Origin: Acholeplasmataceae bacterium
Lineage (GTDB): Bacteria; Bacillota_I; Bacilli_A; Acholeplasmatales; Acholeplasmataceae
Length of the DNA stretch: 64,000 nt
Direction of reading: 5' to 3'
NCBI GenBank assembly: GCA_963676425.1
Contig: OY781090.1
Span: 1,324,277 to 1,388,276, forward strand
Positions within the stretch are counted from its first letter, which is position 1, and each line of letters starts with the position of its first letter. A program made the position numbers and the translations under genes. The notes under the pieces were generated by a model. It was not told the DNA's origin, did not search any database, and worked only from the letters and a program-made list of their open reading frames with translations. Shown here one piece after another: positions 15,946-35,847 of this stretch.

Positions 15946-15980
15946 TAAAAACAAAAAAAGGATAAATACTATTTATCCTC
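15946..15980 (-). terminator. Rho-independent terminator ending the RHS-LRR cassette
   Basis: 9-bp stem AGGATAAAT/ATTTATCCT (15959..15979) with a 3-nt loop, followed on the minus strand by TTTTTTTGTTTTT. Confidence 0.7.
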
Positions 15981-16112
15981 TTACTTTTAGTTTTACAATA
16001 TAATAAGCAGCTAATAATTATTTAATGAAAATCTATAATAAGTTATCTTGTTTCAAATTACTACTGATAGAAAAATCTCTTATAAATTATTCTAAATAAA
16101 CTTATCGAAAGA

Positions 16113-17075
16113 TTATGCATGATATATTCTTCTCCAAAAATCTATTTGATCATCTCCAAAATCTCTTGCCCCAAAAGGAAATGTTTCTAATCTAGGTTTT
16201 TTTCTTTGACCATCAACATCAACAAAGTAATGTTTTTTAATAGGATAAACAGACGATTTTTGAAGTCTCATCAACACATTTAAGTTACCATCAATTATTG
16301 TTGTACTTTCAATCTTACATGTTTTTAATTCATTCAAATTCTTTAAAAAATCTAAGTTATCTATCATTGGTCCATAACTCATCTCAAAATAAACTAGTTT
16401 GCTTAAATTGCTAATCACATGAAGATTTGTTATCTTTTTAGATAATATAATTTGTAAACTCTTAAGTGTATCCTTCATAGATACAAGACTTTGTATATCG
16501 CTTAAATACTTGTTTTCTCTTAATATGAGCCTCTGAATTTTCATACCTTCTAAAAAATTTAAATTAGTTATATCGGTATTGTGTATATAAAGTGTATCCA
16601 ATTGTGTTAAATGCTTAATTTGATCTAATATTGATAAATCCTTACCGGGAATGTAAAAGTTATAAATAAGCAGTGATTTAATTGACTTACAATCCTTTAA
16701 ATTTTTTACAATATTTTTAACATACAGACTAAAAGCTTCCAATTGTGTAAAAGCTGACATATCAATATCATATGTCATTTTATGACTTACACCTAAGAAT
16801 TTTAGTTTGTTTAATTTATGTAAAACCTCTTGATCAAAATATCCATCTATTTCCAAATATATAACATTATCAATTGATAGCATAAACCTCATGTCTTTAA
16901 TCGATTCTTTTGAATTGTCGAATAAAAATTTATCAATCTTATTTTTGTTAATATATTCTATGTCAATATGACTTAGCTCCTTATCGATATATAAAGCTTC
17001 TTTTGGTTCATGTAAATATCGAAATATAGTATTAAAAAGATACCCATCCTTTTCTAAACTACCAAAATTTATCAT
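16113..17075 (-). CDS. Leucine-rich repeat protein; candidate immunity protein for the upstream RHS toxin
   Basis: 320 aa with no signal peptide. It has repeated LxxLxLxxxxIxxLxxL units of about 22 aa (LTQLDTLYIHNTDITNLNFLEGMKIQRLILRENKYLSDIQSLV...). SD AAGGAG lies 8 nt upstream, and the start is 13 nt after the RHS stop. Confidence 0.85.
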   Translation of the reverse strand: MINFGSLEKDGYLFNTIFRYLHEPKEALYIDKELSHIDIEYINKNKIDKFLFDNSKESIKDMRFMLSIDNVIYLEIDGYFDQEVLHKLNKLKFLGVSHKMTYDIDMSAFTQLEAFSLYVKNIVKNLKDCKSIKSLLIYNFYIPGKDLSILDQIKHLTQLDTLYIHNTDITNLNFLEGMKIQRLILRENKYLSDIQSLVSMKDTLKSLQIILSKKITNLHVISNLSKLVYFEMSYGPMIDNLDFLKNLNELKTCKIESTTIIDGNLNVLMRLQKSSVYPIKKHYFVDVDGQRKKPRLETFPFGARDFGDDQIDFWRRIYHA

Positions 17076-17088
17076 TTAATTTCTCCTT

Positions 17089-20000
17089 TTAACTTCCATA
17101 AAGAGGATCCAAGTAATAATAAGACCCATGATCTTGCAAATAGAAATTTCTACCTGGTGACCAAATTTTATTTTTTAATTGAGATCCATCTGTACCAAAA
17201 CCATAATTACACATGATTATGTATTCCATTTTAAATGCCTCTCTTTCATTTTCCGCTGGCATCCATATAATTGCAACAGGAATAGTTGTATCTTCAACAG
17301 AGTGTCTTACTGCTGAAGCTATTACTCTTAGAATTCCACCTTTACCTACGTAAGATTCCCCATCAGCAAATGCAATTACATAAACTCCACTATTCTTGTT
17401 TTTTGGCTTTGTTATTGCTACTGCAATTGGAATTACTACACTATCAATCAATTCTTTTGCTTTATTGCGAATTGAAGACCCAATTTTTTCCAATGTTGAA
17501 GTAATATCATCACCTATATCTCGTATTGAGTCTGCAACACCGGATGCAAACCCACTATTTGGAGCTGCATCTGATATCTCTTGTGCTGCCTTGAGCATAA
17601 GTATTGTTGCTGCATAAACAACTATAGCAGCAATTCCTATTAATGCTAACGTAGCTAATGTTAGAGCTTCGTTACCACTTGGATCTATATTCATGATTGG
17701 ATTATTTACTGCATAAGCATATAAATTAATACTTGAAGATGCATCATCACTTATGTAATTAGCATCATCTATACTAATAAATCTTCCTATTTCAGGATCA
17801 TAATATCTAGCTTGTAGATAATAATATCCTGTTTCAGTGTCATATCGGTACCCTCGATATCTATACGGATTAATGTTTCCGATAAATATAGGTGATTGAT
17901 TTTCCACACCATTAGCAGCTACGACTCTTTGATTACCCCATGCATCATATGTATATGTTACCACTAATTGACCTGATTCATTCATCAGTCCAATCACATT
18001 ACCTAATAAGTCAAACACATAAAAATATTCACTGCCATTATAATTCATACTTAATAATTGATCATTGGCATCATATGTATAATATATTGGATTTCCATTA
18101 ATAAATTCTACAAGCACTAAATTTCCATCTAATACATATTCATATTCATATTCCTCTTCACCAATGGTAATTTTTTTAAATGTTCTAATACCTTCACTGT
18201 TGTATTTGTATTCGATGCTTTGTGTAATTGCACCATCATCATAAATATTGATACCATCAAGTCTTCTTCCACTCCAATTATAGTCTACAGAATGGATATC
18301 ATAATAATCTACTGTATCAAGTAGATTACCTAAATCATCAAAATCATAGTCTCTTTCAACAACCTGCCCTGTTTCATTATAAGCATCAATTTTAACCAAT
18401 TGTATACCATCATATGTCAATACTGTTTTATATGTATAAGGATCAAAATATTCACCTGTATTAACATCGTCTTCATCAATGATATCTTCTTGTGATTGAT
18501 GATAGTTGTATTTTGTTATTTTAATTAAGTTTCCTAAACCATCATATTTGTACGTATATGAATAATCGCTACTTCCTGTTAAATTGATATCTTCTCTAAT
18601 TAATTGATTTAAATTATCATAATGATAATCATATTGTTCAATAATTGTTGTCCCTTGTAGTTTTTTAATTTGAGTAATATTTTGATTACCATCATATTGA
18701 TATCTATATTTGAAATCTGTTGCACTTGAAAAATCATAAACGATTTCATAGATTCTTGTTGTTGCATTTCCTTGTTGAACTGAGATGTCACTATAATTAT
18801 ACATCATTGTTAATATATCATAATGATTGATTGACAGTGTTATTTCATCTAATCTTTTTAATGAGTCATTTGAATAATCATATGTTTTTTCGACATAATC
18901 ATTATTTGATATTAAATAAGATGTATAGTCATATTCTCCTGTAATGTCATTATAATGATACATGACTTCTCTTTCAACACCGCTCACATGATACTCATAT
19001 TCAGCTAAATTACCTTGCTCATCATATCGATAAAATATTTTATTATCTGATGCATCCGTAATTCTTTCTAATTTACCAGCTAAATCATATGAGTAATAAT
19101 AAGCATTATTGTTAACATGATCTAATACTGATCCCAGTCTTCCATTTGCGTCATATTCATATTCATACGATGGATTGCTTGTTTCATTGAAATATACACC
19201 AACTAGCATATCCTCATCGTTATATTTAAAATAATAGTAATCACCGTTACCATATGTTTTTCTTTCTAATAAATCAGTCACATATGATTCGGTTCCAATT
19301 TGATTTGGTTTAGTATAGTAATCATAATGTACAATAAGTTCATTATCAATATAAACATCTGTTAAATGATCAACATCATCATATGTAAATTCATAAGTCA
19401 CACCTGAAACAGTCAAGGTATTTAATCGATGCTCATCATCATAACCATATTCATATGTAACATCTGCACCAAAAGTTTTTTCTAACACTTGTCCAAGGTC
19501 ATTATAACTATAGGTCACTGAACCACCTTCATCATTAATGATTTCAGATAGTAATCCAGTATGTTCATTATACTCATAAGTTGTAACATTGCCAAATTCA
19601 TCAGTTTGTGTATGAATATATTGACTATTATATATATAGCTCGTTGATGTTTTAAACCACTTATCTTGTGTAGTTGAATCTTTGTCATAACCAATGTATT
19701 CATTTTCTACATGTTTGGTTGTTGGATTATATTCAACTGTGACTCTTACATTATTTTGTTCTATTGTTTCTACCATATTAGCATTGTTATAAGTGATATC
19801 AGTTGGTTGATCGTTAGTTTCAATACCTGTAAGGTTGCCATCACTATCATATGTATATGAAGTAATGGTGCCATCTTTGTTTTCTACTTCTGTCACATAA
19901 CCTGTAGACCCATCATAATCATATGCGGTTGCGACATTATCATGATACATTTGTATGTTATCAAAATATGCAGTCCCTTCACCTTGATATGCGCCATAAA

Positions 20001-23000
20001 CTTTTGCACTCACAACATCTACTGGCATTTCAAATGTTGTCATTTGATATTGCCAATCTTCAGTATTTGTATTAAATGGTAGATATACAAATTCATGATA
20101 TGTTACACCACCCTCTTCATCAGGTGCTATACATGTGAAGTCAATATATATACCAAAAAATCTATTATCGTCATAAATACTGTTTGTAGCATATGATTTA
20201 TGTGGCACAGCTGGGGCTTTACCCCAACCACCAATCATAAATGTTTCTCCAGCACTACTGGCTAAGCTATATACCTGTTGATAAAAATACTTCTCTGTAC
20301 TTCCATCTCCACTAATATACATTGAATATCTACCTAAGATATCGTCCATACCTGATGCATTGTTATTGGTTGTAATATAAGCATTACTTCTTGTCCATCC
20401 TGTTGTGCTATTTTCAAATCCACTATTAGACAACACATTATATCTAGATTCACTAAAACCTTCATAAAGTTGTATGTTATCAAAATAAGCTGTTGAAATG
20501 CTTTCATTACATAATTTCAATGTAACACTACGTGCTGTTGAAATGTAGAAATCAATTTTATATGATTTCCATGAATCACTATTAGATATTTGATCGTCTT
20601 CTTGATACGTCGCTGAAGTTGCATTTGATATTTCTAGAAACGCACCTTTACCATTAACTAAAGATCCATCATTTTTAATATATCCATACACTGTATAATA
20701 TCCAGGTTCTAAATAAAAATTTTGTGATGCATATGGATTTGATCCTGAGTTTGTAATAGCCATTGATCTTTGTCCAAAAACTGAATAATCCGAGCTGTAA
20801 GAGAAATGTCCTGTTGAATTTGCAGTTAACGTCCAACCTCCAGCATGCTCAAACCCATGATTACTCACTTGATTTTGTGTTTGTTTTAATACATCTGATT
20901 TCGTTAGTAATTTATGAACTAAAAAATAATTAGGATTTGCATTGATTATTTCTGAATAATTAAAATCATATTCGCTTAATCCAACATAAGTAAATAGTCC
21001 TGCATACTTAAAATATTGTGCATTACCCTTGTTATCTTGAATATTTATCGTATGTCCATAGTTATCAAATAAATATGTTGTATTGTTTCCTAAATCATCA
21101 CTATAAATAGTTTTTTGATGTGCATATTCAATATCAATATTGCTCACAGGTTGATTACTATCAGATAAATTTATTTGAGTTATTCTATCTAAGGTATCAG
21201 ATGTGTAAATGATTTTTTGTTCACTATTTTCAAGTTCAACACTAAAAAGTGAGTCATTACTATTATAGACATAATTAATTTTGTTTGAACTTGCATATCC
21301 TTGATTTGGATCCGGATCTGGATCTGGTTCATCTGGTGGTGTAATAATGATAATACCTGGTAATGCTTGGATTGAAACAATTTCTTCATCTAAACTATGA
21401 CTTAAAACTGTAGTTGCTAAATTATCATCATAATTTGAATATGAAATCAATGATGTTAATTCACTACTACTATTATATGTATATCTCTTATATTCTATTA
21501 ATTTATGTAACCCATTTTCTTGAACTAAATAAAGGTTTGATCTAATAAGTTTGTCACTATAGTAAGTAAGTGTAATCTTATTACCTACTGTATCAGTCAC
21601 TTGAGAGACTTTTAGTGTTGTCGTATCAACATATGAAACGACCAAAAAGTGACCATTCTTTGTATTGGTAATTCTTGTCAATCTTCCTAGATTACTACTT
21701 TCAAAGGTATATTTTATACCTTCTTGTGATTCTAAATTAAGATTGCCTTGCACATTGCCTTGATAAGTACTATACGTTAATGACATACCTGATCCATTTT
21801 CTGCTAACCAAGTATATTGATCGACACCAGAATAAACATTTTCAATTTGCATTAAAACAAAAAATATTTTTTCCCCATCTGGTTTTAGTAGATAATATTG
21901 ATCCAAATCATCATCATGTAATATTTGTTGATTATAACTTGTTTTCCAACCAATACCATACCCTTCATTACTTTGTGTAGATGAATATTCATGATTATAT
22001 ATCATATCTAATGATAGTGACATATATTCATTCTTTAATGCATAGTCATTTCTTACCCATGTAAGATGTCCTGTATAATCACTCACATATCCCTGCCCTG
22101 CTGGTCCTAAATCTTGAGAAGTATATGTCCAATAATCCTTTAAACCTTTAGGACTTTCATAACCAATCGTAATAACAGGATTATGACTGCCTGATGTTAC
22201 ATTTTGATAAACTGAATTAAAAGATCCATAGTTATCATCAAGTGCAATCGTAAATCCAGTTGTTCTTCTGACTCCTGTTGCTTGCCATTCTTTGACAGGC
22301 TTAGTAATATCAAACATAAATGGTGTGTTAGAATTAATCGTATAGTAATCAATCACTTTCGAACTGTAGCTAGGTGCATTGTTCCATGTAGCTGTACTAC
22401 TAGAAAAATTTTCATTATTTTTGTATATGTTTATTTGCCCACTTGTGGTTGTATGTTTATCAAATCCTAATTTGGCATATGTTATGGTTTGATCCATGAC
22501 CTCTGTTGGTAATGTAAAATACAGTAATCCCCTATACTCAGTTGTTGATGTCGTACCACTGACATACATATAACTTAAATTATAGTTTTTTGCATCAGGA
22601 TTAGCTTCTGAAATATATGTATCAAATATTGACATTGAAGTCGTTGTACTATTTAAGCTTGGATCAATTCTTACTGGATAACTAGCGTTCATTAACCAGT
22701 TTTCATCAGGTATCACTTTAAACGAATATTTGTTATTTGATATCTCTTTAATTTCATACGTGATATCAGATGAATAATTGTCAAGATTATCATACATAAC
22801 AAAAGGATCAAAACTAAATATAGCTTCTCCTTCTTCATTAACAAGCACTAATTGTCCATCAACTTCAATAAACGATAAGCCTTTGACTTTATACTCAAAT
22901 TCAAAAGACAAATCTTCTTGATATTTATTAACTATTATATCTTCTTTAATTTTAGAACCTTCTAACGTATACACTAAATCAATATCTTGCATGATATTTT

Positions 23001-23601
23001 TATATGTAACTTCTTGACTTATGTTTATTAGTTCTCTTAAATCTTGTTCGTTAACTTTCATCTTTTCGCTTGCGACAAGTACCTCTGATGACTTGCTACC
23101 TAAAAGATGCCAACTGATATCATATTTACCCATAGATAATTTAACATCAGATTTAGTTATATTTTTAGGAAATTGTATATCAAATTGATTAGATTTATTA
23201 TTGTATGTTTTAGTTTTTGTATCATAATCTAATCGATTATCTATATCTATCCAGTCATCGCCATCTTTATAGTGCACAGCACTATCGTAGATCGCAACTT
23301 CGTAACTTCCATCCTGTTTTCTAAAATGCTTTTCATTAAGTTGTCTTTTTGATGTGTCTTCCGATATAACAGGAATATCAGATGCATCTACATCTAGATT
23401 GTAGACTTGATCATCTACCTCTGTGATTTCTTCTGTTACTGGTTTTGTATCAGAAAACTCTTCTGCAATTGCCTGATATGGCACTAAACTTAAAAACATC
23501 GCAATCAATAATAAGATTGCCATGAATTTCTCGCGGTGTTTCATTCTAATGGTCATATTTCTGACTTCATCAGAACTAAACGGTGTAAACATTCGTTTCA
23601 T
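17089..23601 (-). CDS. RHS/YD-repeat polymorphic toxin precursor with Sec signal, DNRLRE-like domain, two jelly-roll CBM-like domains, YD shell and C-terminal toxin module
   Basis: Many YD repeats (YTYDSDGNL, YEYDANGRL, YRYDEQGNL, YKYDGLGNL, YTYDAWGN). RHS core end RYYDPEIGRFISIDD ... NPIMNIDPSGNE. SD GGAGGG lies 7 nt upstream of ATG 23601; the ORF-track start 23616 overlaps that SD. Confidence 0.93.
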   Translation of the reverse strand: MKRMFTPFSSDEVRNMTIRMKHREKFMAILLLIAMFLSLVPYQAIAEEFSDTKPVTEEITEVDDQVYNLDVDASDIPVISEDTSKRQLNEKHFRKQDGSYEVAIYDSAVHYKDGDDWIDIDNRLDYDTKTKTYNNKSNQFDIQFPKNITKSDVKLSMGKYDISWHLLGSKSSEVLVASEKMKVNEQDLRELINISQEVTYKNIMQDIDLVYTLEGSKIKEDIIVNKYQEDLSFEFEYKVKGLSFIEVDGQLVLVNEEGEAIFSFDPFVMYDNLDNYSSDITYEIKEISNNKYSFKVIPDENWLMNASYPVRIDPSLNSTTTSMSIFDTYISEANPDAKNYNLSYMYVSGTTSTTEYRGLLYFTLPTEVMDQTITYAKLGFDKHTTTSGQINIYKNNENFSSSTATWNNAPSYSSKVIDYYTINSNTPFMFDITKPVKEWQATGVRRTTGFTIALDDNYGSFNSVYQNVTSGSHNPVITIGYESPKGLKDYWTYTSQDLGPAGQGYVSDYTGHLTWVRNDYALKNEYMSLSLDMIYNHEYSSTQSNEGYGIGWKTSYNQQILHDDDLDQYYLLKPDGEKIFFVLMQIENVYSGVDQYTWLAENGSGMSLTYSTYQGNVQGNLNLESQEGIKYTFESSNLGRLTRITNTKNGHFLVVSYVDTTTLKVSQVTDTVGNKITLTYYSDKLIRSNLYLVQENGLHKLIEYKRYTYNSSSELTSLISYSNYDDNLATTVLSHSLDEEIVSIQALPGIIIITPPDEPDPDPDPNQGYASSNKINYVYNSNDSLFSVELENSEQKIIYTSDTLDRITQINLSDSNQPVSNIDIEYAHQKTIYSDDLGNNTTYLFDNYGHTINIQDNKGNAQYFKYAGLFTYVGLSEYDFNYSEIINANPNYFLVHKLLTKSDVLKQTQNQVSNHGFEHAGGWTLTANSTGHFSYSSDYSVFGQRSMAITNSGSNPYASQNFYLEPGYYTVYGYIKNDGSLVNGKGAFLEISNATSATYQEDDQISNSDSWKSYKIDFYISTARSVTLKLCNESISTAYFDNIQLYEGFSESRYNVLSNSGFENSTTGWTRSNAYITTNNNASGMDDILGRYSMYISGDGSTEKYFYQQVYSLASSAGETFMIGGWGKAPAVPHKSYATNSIYDDNRFFGIYIDFTCIAPDEEGGVTYHEFVYLPFNTNTEDWQYQMTTFEMPVDVVSAKVYGAYQGEGTAYFDNIQMYHDNVATAYDYDGSTGYVTEVENKDGTITSYTYDSDGNLTGIETNDQPTDITYNNANMVETIEQNNVRVTVEYNPTTKHVENEYIGYDKDSTTQDKWFKTSTSYIYNSQYIHTQTDEFGNVTTYEYNEHTGLLSEIINDEGGSVTYSYNDLGQVLEKTFGADVTYEYGYDDEHRLNTLTVSGVTYEFTYDDVDHLTDVYIDNELIVHYDYYTKPNQIGTESYVTDLLERKTYGNGDYYYFKYNDEDMLVGVYFNETSNPSYEYEYDANGRLGSVLDHVNNNAYYYSYDLAGKLERITDASDNKIFYRYDEQGNLAEYEYHVSGVEREVMYHYNDITGEYDYTSYLISNNDYVEKTYDYSNDSLKRLDEITLSINHYDILTMMYNYSDISVQQGNATTRIYEIVYDFSSATDFKYRYQYDGNQNITQIKKLQGTTIIEQYDYHYDNLNQLIREDINLTGSSDYSYTYKYDGLGNLIKITKYNYHQSQEDIIDEDDVNTGEYFDPYTYKTVLTYDGIQLVKIDAYNETGQVVERDYDFDDLGNLLDTVDYYDIHSVDYNWSGRRLDGINIYDDGAITQSIEYKYNSEGIRTFKKITIGEEEYEYEYVLDGNLVLVEFINGNPIYYTYDANDQLLSMNYNGSEYFYVFDLLGNVIGLMNESGQLVVTYTYDAWGNQRVVAANGVENQSPIFIGNINPYRYRGYRYDTETGYYYLQARYYDPEIGRFISIDDANYISDDASSSINLYAYAVNNPIMNIDPSGNEALTLATLALIGIAAIVVYAATILMLKAAQEISDAAPNSGFASGVADSIRDIGDDITSTLEKIGSSIRNKAKELIDSVVIPIAVAITKPKNKNSGVYVIAFADGESYVGKGGILRVIASAVRHSVEDTTIPVAIIWMPAENEREAFKMEYIIMCNYGFGTDGSQLKNKIWSPGRNFYLQDHGSYYYLDPLYGS
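17092..17667 (-). other. C-terminal toxin module of the RHS protein (hydrophobic helix plus GIY-YIG-like nuclease signature)
   Basis: 192 aa follow DPSGNE. A TM-like helix ALTLATLALIGIAAIVVYAATILML lies at 17593..17667. Then GVYVIAFADGESYVGKG ... AVRH ... ENEREAFKMEY ... LKNKI lies at about 17152..17388. Confidence 0.55.
19939..20869 (-). other. Tandem pair of CBM4_9-like (galactose-binding-like jelly-roll) domains in the RHS protein
   Basis: Two paralogous units: NHGFEHAGGWTL...STAYFDNIQLYE (20461..20869) and NSGFENSTTGWTR...GTAYFDNIQMYHD (19939..20434). Confidence 0.55.
22160..22650 (-). other. DNRLRE-like domain of the RHS protein
   Basis: SIFDTYISEANPDAKNYNLSYMYVSG...YRGLLYFTLP...AKLGF...WNNAP resembles the DNRLRE module seen at the N-termini of Firmicute wall-associated/RHS proteins. 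Boundaries are approximate. Confidence 0.5.
23464..23601 (-). other. Signal peptide region of the RHS protein
   Basis: Basic n-region, hydrophobic core MAILLLIAMFLSLVPY, AxA site QAIA|EE. Confidence 0.65.
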
Positions 23602-23750
23602 TATAATTCCCTCCATTTAATGAACATATTAAGTTGTGTATCGTCGATACCCCCATATGTATTATTCTAATAATAATATTAAATTCATAAAAAATCAAGA
23701 ACCTTTTATGTTTGGTTAGGGTATTTTAGAACAATTTTCATGCATTATAC

Positions 23751-30991: not shown

Positions 30992-31921
30992 TTAGTAATT
31001 AATTTCATATATATCTAAGAGTTTCTTATATTTATCTTGTCCAAATAAACAAGTATCTATTAAGTATCCTCTTTCATCTAAATATTTACTTAATCCTCTA
31101 TAATATAAAGCTTTTATAGCGTCATCAATTGTAAAAGGTACGAGCCCATGTCTTAGACATTCTTTAAATGCAATGAGTCTTCCTACTCTACCATTACCAT
31201 CTTGAAATGGATGTATACATTCAAATTGATAATGGAAATCAATAATATCTTCAAAAGTATATGTTTTTTTATTTTCATATATACCAATTAAAGAAGCCAT
31301 TTTACTTTGAACTTCACTTGGTTTAGCTGTTTCAATACCACCAACTGTATTAATTCTTCTTTTATATTCACCCACATTAAACCAATCAAGTTTTGAATCA
31401 CTTGTATTTGATTTTAAAATCTTATGAATATCTTTAATAAGATTTTCAGTCACAGGTTCTAATGCTGACTTGATCATATAGTCTATACATCTAAAATGAT
31501 TTTGTGTCTCAATAACATCATCTATATTAATTGTTGTATCTTGATCAATTCCTATCGTATTTGTTTCAAAAATGTATCTCGTTTGATCTGCAGTCAATTT
31601 ACTACCTTCAATATGATTTGAATTATATGTTAGAAGAATTTGTGTCTCGTGATAAATACTGCCTTTAATTTTATGTGTCATTTCTTCTTTTAGTCTCAAC
31701 AATAATTCTGAAGAATTATCTACTGTAATAAATTCAACGACATCGTTTAAAGTAACATTCAAATATTTACATATTGCCTCTAATGTCTGTAGTGACACAT
31801 ATTCACCTTTTTTAAATTTAGCCTGTGTAGCAGAAGAAATATTAAGATCTTGCATCATTTGTGAGAGTGTTATGTTTCGTTTATTTAAAACATTATATAA
31901 TCCTCTAAAATTCATACTCAT
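30992..31921 (-). CDS. XRE-type HTH domain fused to a Fic (AMPylase family) domain
   Basis: N-terminal HTH (ITLSQMMQDLNISSATQAKFKKGE). Fic motif HPFQDGNGRVGR at 31178..31213. Inhibitory-helix motif SNHIEG (S-x-x-x-E-G) at 31604..31621. Confidence 0.88.
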   Translation of the reverse strand: MSMNFRGLYNVLNKRNITLSQMMQDLNISSATQAKFKKGEYVSLQTLEAICKYLNVTLNDVVEFITVDNSSELLLRLKEEMTHKIKGSIYHETQILLTYNSNHIEGSKLTADQTRYIFETNTIGIDQDTTINIDDVIETQNHFRCIDYMIKSALEPVTENLIKDIHKILKSNTSDSKLDWFNVGEYKRRINTVGGIETAKPSEVQSKMASLIGIYENKKTYTFEDIIDFHYQFECIHPFQDGNGRVGRLIAFKECLRHGLVPFTIDDAIKALYYRGLSKYLDERGYLIDTCLFGQDKYKKLLDIYEINY

Positions 31922-33414: not shown

Positions 33415-33858
33415 CTACTTTTCTATAACTTTTACTTCGAATTGCGCCTTAATATCTTTGTGTAATGATACAAATGCTGTATATATACCAATAGAGTTGA
33501 TTTCACTTTGCAATTCTAGTTTTTTCTTATCTATTAGTATACCATGAGTTTCTTGAAATGCTTCAGCAATTTGTTTAGTTGTGATACTTCCAAATTGTTT
33601 ACCATCTTTACCCACTTGTATTTGTAATACAACTTGTTTACCATCAATTTCAGATTTAAGTTTTTTCATTAAATCTAAATGACGTTGTTCAGCTTCTTTT
33701 TGTTTTTGTTTTTCAGCCTCTAAACTAGATAAATTATCATCACTTGCGAGTACTGCTTTCTTTTGATTTAGTAAGAATTGACCATATCCGTTTGCAACTT
33801 CAATAATCTCATCTTTCTTACCTTTACCTTTAACATCAGTTGTTAAAATTACTTTCAT
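33415..33858 (-). CDS. rplI: Ribosomal protein L9 (internal in-frame start within the gdpP ORF)
   Basis: MKVILTTDVKGKGKKDEIIEVANGYGQFL is a canonical L9 N-terminus. SD GGTGGAGG lies 8 nt upstream of ATG 33856..33858. 147 aa. Confidence 0.85.
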   Translation of the reverse strand: MKVILTTDVKGKGKKDEIIEVANGYGQFLLNQKKAVLASDDNLSSLEAEKQKQKEAEQRHLDLMKKLKSEIDGKQVVLQIQVGKDGKQFGSITTKQIAEAFQETHGILIDKKKLELQSEINSIGIYTAFVSLHKDIKAQFEVKVIEK

Positions 33859-35847
33859 CTTTTCGCCTCCACCATATTCCATTTCTACATACATACGTAA
33901 AGATTCATAAACTTCACGAATTGATGTATCTTTAATTTGAGCAGCAGCACTATTAAAGTGTCCACCACCACCGATCATTTCCATTAATATTTGAACATTG
34001 ATATCATGAATACTTCTTGCTGATACGGCAACCGTATGGTCATCCATTCTCGCAATTGTAAATGCTGCATCAATACCATTAATCTCTAATGCTGCATCTG
34101 ATACTTGAGCAAGTAATACTCTATCTTCATAAATATCAGATGTTACAATAAATGCAAATTTGTTTAACACTATTTCTACTTGGTCTAATAAGTTATTAAT
34201 TTCCATAATACGCATCATATCACGTCTTAACCACGTTTTAACTAAAGTAGCATCTGCACCCAATTCTTTTAGTCTAGATGCGACTTCAAATGTTCTTGAT
34301 GATGTTCTAAATAAGAAATTAGATGTGTCTACAATTAAACCACCATACATGATTGATGCTTCAATTGGAGATATCTTAGTTTCTTCTTCTATATTATAAA
34401 AACCAATGAGATCCATCATAAGTTCTATCGTTGAACTTGCTGATGGTTCGATAATTGAGAATATCGCATTGAATCTTTCTTCACCAGCTCTATGGTGATC
34501 AATAACGATGACGTTTTCTGTTTTTTCTAATAATTGCGGTACCATCACCATTTTTGGAGATTGTGAATCAACAACAATTAATAAACTTTGTTCTTTAATA
34601 TTTTCTAAAGCTTGAAGTCCTGTAACTACTTCTTCATCAATATCACTTAATTGATCTTTAACTGCTTCATATACTTTAGTCACTGTAGGATCTAACTTAT
34701 CTTTATCAACAACGATATAAGCTTTCTTCTTTGAAGCCCTTGTCATATGATAACAAGCTAGTGCAGATCCAAAAGCATCCATATCAGACATGTGATGACC
34801 CATGATATATACATCTGCAGCTTTTTCAATAAAATCTTTGATTGTTTGTGCATTAATTCTAACACCAACTCTTGAGTTCTTAATAGAGGCATCAGATTTC
34901 GCACCAAAGTACATAATTTTTTGATCTTGAATATTAACTACAACTTGATCTCCACCGCGTTTTTCGGCTAAATCTACAGCATTTTGAGCATAAACACCAA
35001 TTTCTTCATATGAGATATCCCAAGAAGCGATACCCATTGATATTGATACTCTAACTTTTTCTTCTGCTGAGATTTTTCTAATCTTATCTAATAGACTAAA
35101 TTTATTTTCAATCATTAAATTTAAGTTTTTACGATCAGTTACTAGTAAAATCTTTTCATCTGCGAACGGTTTAACATAACAATCAAAGTCAGCTGCCCAA
35201 TCATTGATAGCTGCTAAATAATCACCTTTAATCATTGATTGTTCTGAAACATCTAGAACTGATAATGCTTCATCTAAGTTATCTAAGAAAACTAAAGCTA
35301 AAGCTGGAATTTGTTCTTGATATTTTTGGAACACTCTTTCTCTTTGTGTTGCTTCAAATAAATAGAAGAAACGATATTCTGGACGATAGGTAACATCATA
35401 ATACTTATCATCTTTTTCTATAATAAAATTCATTTTACTATGTGTGACTAAATCATACATACGTTCATGAATATCTTCTAATTTTTTACCATTAACCTTA
35501 TGTCCAAATATTGTTTGGGCATGAGGGTTTGTCCATTTAATTTCAAAATTCTCATCGACTGCTATCATGCCAATTGGTAATTCATTAAATATCTCATCAC
35601 CGGCTTGTGAAATATGATAAGAAAGTTTAGACCACATTTGTAATCTATTTTGCAATGTTGATATCTTTTGATGTGATCGTTGATTAAGTAGAATAAACAT
35701 ACCTACAAATAATAAGACATTCGCAAAAAAAATCACGATAAACGCAATCAATTCACGTGATGATTCAAAACCTAAATAAGGTAGATATAAAATTATCCCA
35801 ACGCCAGCAAATACTGCTGCTAATGCTAAAAATATCCAACGTTTCAT
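33415..35847 (-). CDS. gdpP: GdpP-type c-di-AMP phosphodiesterase (2 TM, PAS, degenerate GGDEF, DHH/DHHA1) with no stop codon before rplI, giving an 810-aa GdpP-L9 fusion ORF
   Basis: Two N-terminal TM helices; LPIGMIAVDENFEIKWTNPHA (PAS-like); HHMSDMDAFGS, VIDHHR (DHH); GGGHFNSAAAQ (DHHA1). The junction reads ...YVEMEYGGGEK-MKVILTT with no stop codon. Confidence 0.85.
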   Translation of the reverse strand: MKRWIFLALAAVFAGVGIILYLPYLGFESSRELIAFIVIFFANVLLFVGMFILLNQRSHQKISTLQNRLQMWSKLSYHISQAGDEIFNELPIGMIAVDENFEIKWTNPHAQTIFGHKVNGKKLEDIHERMYDLVTHSKMNFIIEKDDKYYDVTYRPEYRFFYLFEATQRERVFQKYQEQIPALALVFLDNLDEALSVLDVSEQSMIKGDYLAAINDWAADFDCYVKPFADEKILLVTDRKNLNLMIENKFSLLDKIRKISAEEKVRVSISMGIASWDISYEEIGVYAQNAVDLAEKRGGDQVVVNIQDQKIMYFGAKSDASIKNSRVGVRINAQTIKDFIEKAADVYIMGHHMSDMDAFGSALACYHMTRASKKKAYIVVDKDKLDPTVTKVYEAVKDQLSDIDEEVVTGLQALENIKEQSLLIVVDSQSPKMVMVPQLLEKTENVIVIDHHRAGEERFNAIFSIIEPSASSTIELMMDLIGFYNIEEETKISPIEASIMYGGLIVDTSNFLFRTSSRTFEVASRLKELGADATLVKTWLRRDMMRIMEINNLLDQVEIVLNKFAFIVTSDIYEDRVLLAQVSDAALEINGIDAAFTIARMDDHTVAVSARSIHDINVQILMEMIGGGGHFNSAAAQIKDTSIREVYESLRMYVEMEYGGGEKMKVILTTDVKGKGKKDEIIEVANGYGQFLLNQKKAVLASDDNLSSLEAEKQKQKEAEQRHLDLMKKLKSEIDGKQVVLQIQVGKDGKQFGSITTKQIAEAFQETHGILIDKKKLELQSEINSIGIYTAFVSLHKDIKAQFEVKVIEK

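Follow-up and report, generated by a model that had tools for sequence, protein, structure and literature searches.

We found that a large Rhs gene in a 64,000-nucleotide stretch of an Acholeplasmataceae genome (GenBank assembly GCA_963676425.1, contig OY781090.1, positions 1,324,277 to 1,388,276), hereafter called the window, ends in a domain that is predicted to be a divergent GIY-YIG nuclease, and that the gene just downstream, encoding a leucine-rich repeat (LRR) protein, likely specifies the cognate immunity protein. Our preferred reading, to which we assign a probability of about 0.72, is that the two genes form a polymorphic toxin system, in which an exported Rhs protein would carry a helix-linker-GIY-YIG tail that cuts DNA and is neutralized by the LRR protein. 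Coordinates below are those of the window, and every gene and protein segment located by them is encoded on the minus strand.

A widespread family of Rhs C-terminal domains

The Rhs gene (17089..23616) encodes 2175 aa, the last 192 of which form a tail behind the Rhs core (17092..17667, ~20.6 kDa); its sequence stands as an earlier, sequence-only reading of this DNA had given it. The tail ends in a 104-residue domain of 11.7 kDa. Based on the AlphaFold model, Foldseek matches, conservation, and a profile alignment to UvrC, we place a GIY-YIG (URI)-like nuclease domain at tail residues 94-180 (17128..17388). It is followed by a Tyr-rich C-terminal extension, QDHGSYYYLDPLYGS (17092..17127), that is common to the closest subfamily (...YYPGDPGW) and has lower predicted local distance difference test (pLDDT) values at the end of the model.

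A single-sequence search with the tail found 2 relatives, and an indexed search with a three-sequence profile found 204. An alignment of 66 sequences, called A3, was then the query of an exhaustive HMMER search, which found 799 clusters (counted at 50% identity) at E ≤ 1e-3 and 524 at E ≤ 1e-10; among all matches listed, the match lies at the protein C-terminus. The long members of this toxin family are RHS-repeat proteins of 1267-2769 aa, and in two family members a PT-HINT domain precedes the toxin domain. Many other members are orphan cassettes of ~190-200 aa that start with the end of an Rhs core (…YAYCxNNPVxxxDxxG) and are arrayed downstream of full-length Rhs genes. Occurring both on many Rhs bodies and in orphan cassettes, the domain shows the normal behavior of a polymorphic-toxin payload. 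The family domains are basic, with a median isoelectric point (pI) of 9.6.

Active-site pattern and relation to UvrC

We counted conservation over 246 domains aligned to the family profile, using tail numbering. The near-invariant positions are G94 and Y96 (242/246 each), Y106 (244/246), G108 (246/246), K109, G110, and R114 (245/246 each), S118 (244/246), A144 and F145 (234/246 each), the Glu of 'MEY', E148 (243/246), N166 (245/246), S170 (242/246), P171 (243/246), and G172 (245/246). Positions of this invariant type make up the canonical GIY, YIG, Arg, Glu, and Asn set of GIY-YIG nucleases, and all catalytic positions are intact in the window's copy. In the predicted structure, G94-V-Y96 falls on β1 and Y106-V-G108 on β2, as in the GIY/YIG hairpin, and R114 stands at the start of predicted helix 24-38 of the domain. 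E148 pairs with UvrC E76, the metal-binding Glu, within NEREAFxxE, and N166 pairs with the conserved Asn, UvrC N88. Since the nuclease-like motif is the conserved core of a 799-cluster family, it is not a chance pattern, and conservation of the five canonical catalytic positions above 98% in the 246 sequences argues for catalysis.

Aligned by hhalign to Thermotoga maritima UvrC, the family profile gives a P value of 0.0032 over 69 columns and pairs GxY with G17-V-Y19, YVGK with Y29-I-G31-K32, AFxxE with A72-F73-I-L-E76, and YN with Y87-N88. The hexapeptide NEREAF is identical in the window's domain and T. maritima UvrC. The T. maritima score was reached by 4 of 5000 shuffles (empirical P ~8e-4), and the score against E. 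coli UvrC by 26 of 5000 (empirical P ~5e-3). I-TevI, whose motifs had been offered as the original comparison, was rejected as a relative by sequence similarity: 937 of 5000 shuffles reached its score, a likeness not above chance. The I-TevI and T. maritima UvrC sequences used here were checked against their PDB entries.

The sequence-only reading had called the domain a GIY-YIG/URI nuclease. Its fold and general active-site pattern are supported by these data; a curated-model match is lacking, and the Arg and Glu were misassigned. The GVY and YVG motifs are real and conserved, with a spacer of 9 residues, not the 10 that had been counted, and thus one below the usual 10-11. The Arg-His of VRH (R122-H123 of the tail) turned out to be variable in the family (His in 80/246), as did the Glu of ERE (E in 21/246 and 95/246 at the two Glu positions), which makes neither a good catalytic candidate. 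Two gap lengths also needed correction, to 15 aa after RHS instead of 20 and to 7 aa after CNYG instead of 10.

Predicted fold

In the AlphaFold model of the whole tail, three long helices of low confidence precede a C-terminal domain that is modeled confidently (pLDDT > 90). A Foldseek search with this 192-residue model was uninformative, with a lone GIY-YIG match (1zg2, rank 2, E 0.36); since the three long helices swamped the search, a domain-only model was needed. The model of the domain built from A3 has a pLDDT of 94.9, a predicted template-modeling score (pTM) of 0.86, and the topology β(6-12) β(17-21) α(24-38) β(42-49) α(53-66) α(84-92). This β-β-α-β-α-α order would provide the three-stranded sheet flanked by helices that is typical of GIY-YIG domains.

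Searched against the PDB, the domain model has GIY-YIG proteins as its top five matches, namely three Bacillus caldotenax UvrC chains, T. maritima UvrC (1ycz), and UPF0213 protein BH0048 (1zg2). The best is B. caldotenax UvrC (1yd6_B; E 0.074, probability 0.99, template-modeling (TM) score 0.55, 2.7 Å over 74 columns), and I-TevI appears at ranks 11 and 21. In BFVD, nearly all named matches among the top 50 are GIY-YIG nucleases or homing endonucleases, with probabilities of 0.9-1.0, TM scores of 0.45-0.57, and a best E-value of 3.1e-3. The structure search suggested earlier for a model of the tail was therefore uninformative with the whole tail and retrieved GIY-YIG folds, at E > 1e-3, with the domain alone. 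From its conserved pattern and modeled fold, we predict that the toxin family is a divergent UvrC-like GIY-YIG clade.

A linked family of LRR proteins

The LRR gene (16113..17075) starts 13 nt past the toxin stop codon, behind AAAGGAG. Its 320-aa product has neither a signal peptide nor a membrane segment and is a cytoplasmic protein that homology and gene linkage make a candidate for cognate immunity. Searched alone, it has weak Pfam matches to LRR_4 (E 0.0017) and LRR_14 (E 7.8e-4). Genes downstream of toxin homologues are related to it (29% identity, E 1e-33; 34% identity, E 1e-53), and a 25-member profile of the family reaches E 4e-31 against Roco LRR domains and about E 1e-27 against internalins. 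LRR_4 (PF12799) is found in 24 of the 25 members, so the assignment to LRR proteins is firm. The proteins of the family are 312-346 aa long.

The toxin-LRR order is the same in four further metagenome contigs, and it is found at L004/L005, L006/L007, and L008. By a scan of species-representative genomes, made with a peptide pattern that NKIWSPGRNF, the sequence in the window, does not fit, the toxin domain is encoded at 29 loci, mostly in Bacillota, with some in Bacteroidota, Lentisphaerae, and Ignavibacteria-group metagenome-assembled genomes (MAGs). An LRR homologue lies immediately downstream on the same strand in 26 of these 29 loci, and one of the three loci without it is cut by a contig end. 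This linkage argues strongly that the LRR protein is the cognate immunity protein, which would act by binding and inhibiting the toxin domain.

An AT-rich hairpin read from the sequence downstream of the LRR gene (ggataaat-agt-atttatcc followed by a seven-T run; 15953..15978) is a possible terminator of the toxin-immunity pair. A terminator scan, which requires 3 G-C pairs, reported none after the LRR gene.

A transmembrane-like helix and other pre-toxin modules

The tail begins with a transmembrane-like helix, ALTLATLALIGIAAIVVYAATILML (tail residues 1-25, 17593..17667), identified by hydropathy and predicted helicity. The sequence-only reading had described a 25-residue hydrophobic helix right after …NIDPSGNE, and we located it exactly there. 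Its mean Kyte-Doolittle hydropathy is 2.40 over the 25 aa, with a maximum of 2.64 over 19 residues (KD19); only this helix and the N-terminal signal peptide exceed a KD19 of 1.6 in the whole Rhs protein. AlphaFold models the segment as helical with a pLDDT of 61-65. It begins two residues past the presumed cleavage site and is followed immediately by a Lys. Next comes the Ser/Asp-rich linker, likewise as read before, and then GVYVIAFADGESYVGKGGILRVIASAVRHS...ENEREAFKMEYIIMCNYG...LKNKIW. By AlphaFold, hydropathy, and pI, this linker is helical and acidic (tail residues 26-88, 17404..17592, pI 4.8), and hydropathy marks a second short hydrophobic stretch in it, LIDSVVIPIAVAIT (17410..17451), that recurs in relatives.

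An equally hydrophobic helix (KD19 2.1-3.05) stands right after DxxG in 12 close relatives, which also have a second short hydrophobic stretch just ahead of the nuclease domain. Among the 168 toxin-family members with enough upstream sequence, a helix of this type is present in 22, and the majority of the remaining members have either an amphipathic, acid-studded module (FxDxxxDxxSL…WAWxGLxGDxxDxxPFVxGxGE) or a PT-HINT domain. The genome loci with the helix type come from MAGs labeled Haloplasma contractile, Bacillales, Bacillota, and unnamed bacterium (L009-L012), and one helix-type cassette is labeled Candidatus Izemoplasmatales; the Clostridia loci have the amphipathic module, not the helix. 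A Candidatus Izemoplasmatales contig (L002:1-615) encodes a different tail, in which …NNPVMYLDITG is followed by SAVLGLLFQFAVSVLCYIGIAIVAIF and then by a HEFGH (HExxH) domain, so that a membrane-like helix lies directly behind the cleavage motif and before a payload unrelated to the GIY-YIG-like domain. Because the helix is swapped in most relatives and also precedes an HExxH payload, it is an exchangeable module and not part of the nuclease. The tail helix is thus a separable, lineage-specific pre-toxin module. Our literature search found nothing on Rhs proteins in Mollicutes or on hydrophobic helices after an Rhs cleavage site.

Several side observations concern such modules and their neighbors. 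The …WAWxGLxGDxxDxxPFVxGxGE module occurs in the majority of family members, P0002, P0012, P0018, and P0120 among them, and at loci L013-L031. It gives sub-threshold matches to PF01367 (5'-3' exonuclease H3TH/SAM fold) in 33 of 120 members, the best at E 4e-07 and 30.9 bits against a cut-off of 40, and could be a DNA-binding helper of the nuclease or a mere convergence of motifs. PT-TG, considered as a label for the module of most relatives, was dropped because Pfam did not return it, the sub-threshold match to PF01367 being the only one there. A small open reading frame (ORF) resembling a lipoprotein comes after the HEFGH toxin tail of L002. Upstream of an orphan cassette, L001:2-6223 encodes a full-length Rhs protein with a Gly-rich, very hydrophobic tail (…GAFIGAAVGFTFSVGSQMIAGG…), and the gene downstream of it (L001:6216-6698) encodes a multi-pass membrane protein; the two resemble a toxin that targets membranes and a membrane protein conferring immunity to it.

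Layout of the Rhs protein

The 2175-aa protein matches RHS_repeat (PF05593, E 7.3e-23) in Pfam and YD_repeat (TIGR01643), DNRLRE, and Rhs_assc_core in NCBIfam. A probable Sec signal peptide spans residues ~21-51 (MTIRMKHREKFMAILLLIAMFLSLVPYQAIA then EE; 23464..23556); the resemblance, with …KFMAILLLIAMFLSLVPYQAIA ahead of EE, was judged by eye from the sequence, and KD19 exceeds 1.6 over residues 28-52. No PAAR, VgrG, or LXG domain was found in the protein by the Pfam and NCBIfam scans, and we consider it a probable Sec-type, exported Rhs protein. The DNRLRE domain (residues 332-484, 22165..22623; NF033679, E 1.2e-18) is likely a carbohydrate-binding or adhesion module.

The Rhs-associated core (residues 1890-1981, 17674..17949; TIGR03696, E 8.2e-21) ends in …NIDPSG, and the match spans profile positions 1-75 of 76, reaching G1981 of DPSG. 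The aspartyl-protease motif of the core is non-canonical: RYYDPEIGRFISIDDAN-X24-DPSG (17674..17820), that is, IDDAN-X24-DPSG compared to the canonical DPxG-X18-DPxG, with a degenerate first Asp motif. Clostridial relatives have a similarly degenerate motif. DPSG is the presumed autoproteolysis site, at which the tail would be cleaved, and both autoproteolytic release and encapsulation of the tail may be expected by analogy with the structures of Tc, RhsA, and Tse5.

Proposed mechanism and alternative readings

In the mechanism that we propose, the tail would start with the transmembrane-like helix, continue as an acidic helical linker that contains the second, short hydrophobic stretch, and end in a UvrC-like GIY-YIG (URI-fold) domain. 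The catalytic roles of residues in UvrC and I-TevI are the template for the functions proposed here for Tyr, Arg, Glu, and Asn. By this analogy, Y106 (of YVG) and Y96 (of GVY) would be the catalytic Tyr pair, R114 would stabilize the scissile phosphate, E148 would hold a single divalent metal, and N166 would support the site. Inside a rival cell, the domain would nick or cleave DNA, a DNase activity predicted from the same enzymes, and the LRR protein would stay in the producer cytoplasm, where it would bind and neutralize the toxin domain. The hydrophobic helix is predicted most likely to help the released tail engage or cross the cytoplasmic membrane of the target. The sequence-only reading had offered two roles for the helix, passage through the membrane of presumed wall-less targets or anchoring. 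We favor the entry role weakly, as the flanks of the helix are acidic and not positive-inside and the fragment, once released, would have the helix at its very N-terminus.

A number of observations weigh against this interpretation. Curated models do not recognize the domain: with the tail as query, Pfam and NCBIfam gave no match at E ≤ 1 beyond a chance-level one to MCPVI and no significant match to PF01541 or its relatives; scans of the tail and 66-120 relatives against Pfam, NCBIfam, and PHROGs gave only chance-level or sub-threshold matches, the best of them in 120 relatives being to SegE_GIY-YIG (E 0.05) and LEM-3_GIY-YIG (E 0.084); and PDB sequence and profile searches returned nothing relevant. 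The hhalign probability is low, at 10% for T. maritima UvrC and 1.6% (P 0.03) for an E. coli-type UvrC profile. Since Foldseek found no match at E ≤ 1e-3 in the PDB or BFVD, the structural argument rests on the consistency of the matches. The active site itself departs from the canonical one, in that R114 lies 8 residues past the Tyr of YxG compared to 10 in UvrC and I-TevI, a difference in loop length because of which hhalign left R114 unpaired with UvrC R39, and in that an invariant Ser at Arg+4 replaces UvrC Tyr43 and I-TevI His31. The family also has an extra invariant motif, (I/W)SPG(R/K), after the Asn. The window's own domain is an outlier in a basic family, being acidic (pI 6.1), and has a Lys before N166 where 225 of 246 members have Tyr. 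Lastly, autocleavage of the Rhs protein is not assured, because the first Asp motif is degenerate.

The most serious alternative concerns the helix only and leaves the nuclease reading unchanged. The helix may be a Sec stop-transfer anchor that keeps the Rhs body on the surface of the producer, a useful tether for a cell without a wall, with the linker and nuclease inside and bound to the LRR protein until a later event of some kind. Two points make the anchor a serious rival: the protein is a Sec substrate, with an N-terminal signal peptide and no type VI or type VII secretion system (T6SS or T7SS) domain, and a KD19 of 2.64 in a segment of 25 residues is well inside the range of integral membrane helices. 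The Lys directly behind the helix, the cytoplasmic immunity protein, and the occurrence of helix-type modules in MAGs labeled H. contractile, Izemoplasmatales, or vaguely Bacillales or Bacillota, while the Clostridia loci use the other module, are also consistent with an anchor. However, acidic residues flank the helix on both sides, contrary to the positive-inside pattern, autocleavage two residues ahead of the helix would free the Rhs body from its anchor, and the nuclease domain would have no evident route from the producer cytoplasm to the target. Most relatives, as orphan cassettes, are uninformative on topology. Taken together, we view the anchor as a serious but rather less likely possibility. 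We hold it doubtful that in wall-less Mollicutes relatives the Rhs protein is held across the producer membrane by the helix, with its body outside and its nuclease parked inside on the LRR protein, in an export arrest like that of CdiA; if true, an export-arrested Rhs protein resolved on target contact would be a new delivery logic without a wall or T6SS.

Other alternatives concern the activity of the tail. A GIY-YIG-like domain might have RNA as its substrate, or might bind without catalysis, which the Ser at Arg+4, the shorter loop, the extra (I/W)SPG(R/K) motif, and the acidic character of the window's copy would allow, the DNase role itself being a prediction. This is unlikely given that the five canonical catalytic positions are conserved above 98%, that the family as a whole is basic, and that the characterized enzymes with a GIY-YIG domain act as endonucleases on DNA (Zhang et al., 2012; PMC3482391). 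Still less probable is a coincidental likeness in some other small α/β fold, such as that of a deaminase-like toxin, for which one could cite the lack of sequence-model or Foldseek matches past conventional thresholds and the presence of Blasticidin-S and cytidine deaminases among the weak PDB matches (probability 0.2-0.33); the top five PDB matches and nearly all named BFVD matches are instead GIY-YIG, and the conserved residues fall in register on GIY-YIG catalytic positions. A deaminase-like fold in particular was rejected, as no Cys or His that could form its zinc site is conserved in the family. Lastly, it is very improbable that the hydrophobic part is itself the toxin, depolarizing membranes as the Tse5 C-terminal toxin does, with the C-terminal domain an accessory. 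Rhs shells can hold hydrophobic pore-forming tails (PMC10684867), and the L001 Rhs protein, with its Gly-rich hydrophobic tail and downstream multi-pass membrane protein, may be such a case, but the conserved and widespread unit here is the C-terminal domain with a cytoplasmic LRR protein, the helix is missing from most family members, and the immunity protein has no membrane segment.

Comparison with known systems

Systems in which an Rhs toxin carries a GIY-YIG payload and is paired with an immunity protein are of a known kind, and URI/GIY-YIG payloads of such toxins have been on record since 2012. The window's protein has the marks of an Rhs toxin, with RHS/YD repeats, a core ending in DPxG, a variable payload, and a downstream immunity gene. 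The N-terminal domain of UvrC (T. maritima 1ycz, B. caldotenax 1yd6) is the best structural match, with the same β-β-α-β-α-α order and with GxY, YxGK, AFxxE, and YN in register with the toxin family. The toxin family differs from it by a loop between YxG and Arg that is two residues shorter, Ser in place of Tyr43, and the additional SPG(R/K), and by being a stand-alone toxin payload, whereas UvrC functions in DNA repair and has partner domains.

Tox-URI1 and Tox-URI2 are URI-fold nuclease domains at the C-termini of RHS toxins, including those of Firmicutes (Zhang et al., 2012; PMC3482391). Their published signatures are Y, YxG, R, [RK]xxE, and N for Tox-URI1 and Y, KxG, and [EQ] for Tox-URI2, and their immunity partners are Imm14, Imm26, Imm44, and Imm51 for Tox-URI1 and Imm9, Imm12, Imm39, and Imm44 for Tox-URI2 (PMC3482391). 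Our toxin family has the Y, YxG, R, E, and N of Tox-URI1, but, judged by this signature rather than by a model, it departs in having Phe, not Arg or Lys, three residues before the Glu in 234 of 246 members. For Tox-URI2, which has a Pfam model, the Pfam search of the tail at E ≤ 1 returned no match, the chance-level MCPVI being the only hit. The immunity lists of both families are without LRR proteins, a further difference from the family described here.

An Imm-LRR class has been listed next to type V secretion system (T5SS) toxins only (Zhang et al., 2012; PMC3482391). The window's LRR protein is like this class in being encoded beside a polymorphic toxin as a presumed binder and neutralizer, and the family profile detects the tandem LRR units of the class; it differs in that a dedicated LRR family tracks one GIY-YIG-like toxin family across phyla. 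A 2026 preprint on Stenotrophomonas Rhs proteins has both GIY-YIG tails and LRR immunity in its lists; on an item-by-item reading of these, GIY-YIG goes with Knr4/Smi1 immunity and LRR, as predicted immunity, with an LHH RNase (bioRxiv 10.64898/2026.07.13.738213). As far as we found, this distinct, unmodeled toxin clade with a dedicated LRR immunity family is uncatalogued.

For the helix, the nearest comparisons are Tse5, a Pseudomonas aeruginosa Rhs protein whose hydrophobic pore-forming tail is the toxin itself (PMC10684867), and the prePAAR transmembrane domains, which are N-terminal, chaperone-requiring elements of T6SS Rhs effectors (PMC7773334). Both are like the window's protein in linking hydrophobic helices of Rhs effectors to reaching or crossing a target membrane, but both depend on a T6SS, whereas here the helix belongs to a Sec-type Rhs protein and stands between its C-terminal cleavage motif, which it follows directly, and a payload that is enzymatic. 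A membrane-like helix right behind the cleavage motif of a Sec-type Rhs protein in this lineage is, so far as we could find, also uncatalogued.

Genomic surroundings

The toxin-LRR pair sits among housekeeping genes, with the atp operon, upp, and rpiB on one side and typA, then Sua5, prmC, and prfA, on the other. Positions 16000..16999, in the region of the immunity gene, have the lowest G+C content of the neighborhood (24.6% compared to 30-33% in the flanking housekeeping genes), as would fit a gene acquired as a cassette. The window has no rRNA, tRNA, or Rfam matches.

Elsewhere, three unrelated contigs have genes for large serine recombinases (Resolvase, Recombinase, Zn_ribbon_recom; L001:10812-12389, L006:4392-5633, L008:10964-12271) a few kb or less from orphan toxin/LRR cassettes. 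The recombinase gene of L006 immediately precedes the cassette, and genes for a holin and a CHAP protein lie downstream. Such neighbors may point to a prophage or another mobile element, or the recombinases may take part in moving the cassettes.

Two other genes of the window deserve mention. An 810-aa ORF (33415..35847) joins a complete GdpP-like cyclic-di-AMP phosphodiesterase (PAS, GGDEF, DHH, DHHA1) to ribosomal protein L9, in frame and with no stop codon at the junction (…EMEYGGGEK-MKVILTTDVKGKG…); it is either a real fusion or a case of L9 being started at an internal ATG. Located between dnaB and an NMO-like gene, a gene at 30992..31921 encodes a 309-aa protein with an N-terminal Cro/C1-type helix-turn-helix and a Fic/DOC domain.

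Implications

The toxin family spans 799 clusters in several phyla, yet neither Pfam nor NCBIfam has a model of it and no annotation covers it; with a profile made from A3, hundreds of tails and orphan cassettes that are now 'hypothetical' could be given a name. Its strict pairing with one LRR family offers a clean model for the inhibition of a GIY-YIG active site by a repeat protein, and such an inhibitor would parallel, in bacteria, the LRR ribonuclease inhibitor. The helix behind the cleavage motif bears on the question of how Rhs payloads cross the cytoplasmic membrane of a target without a T6SS, and the existence of helix-type and amphipathic pre-toxin modules on the same payload makes this question of membrane crossing testable.

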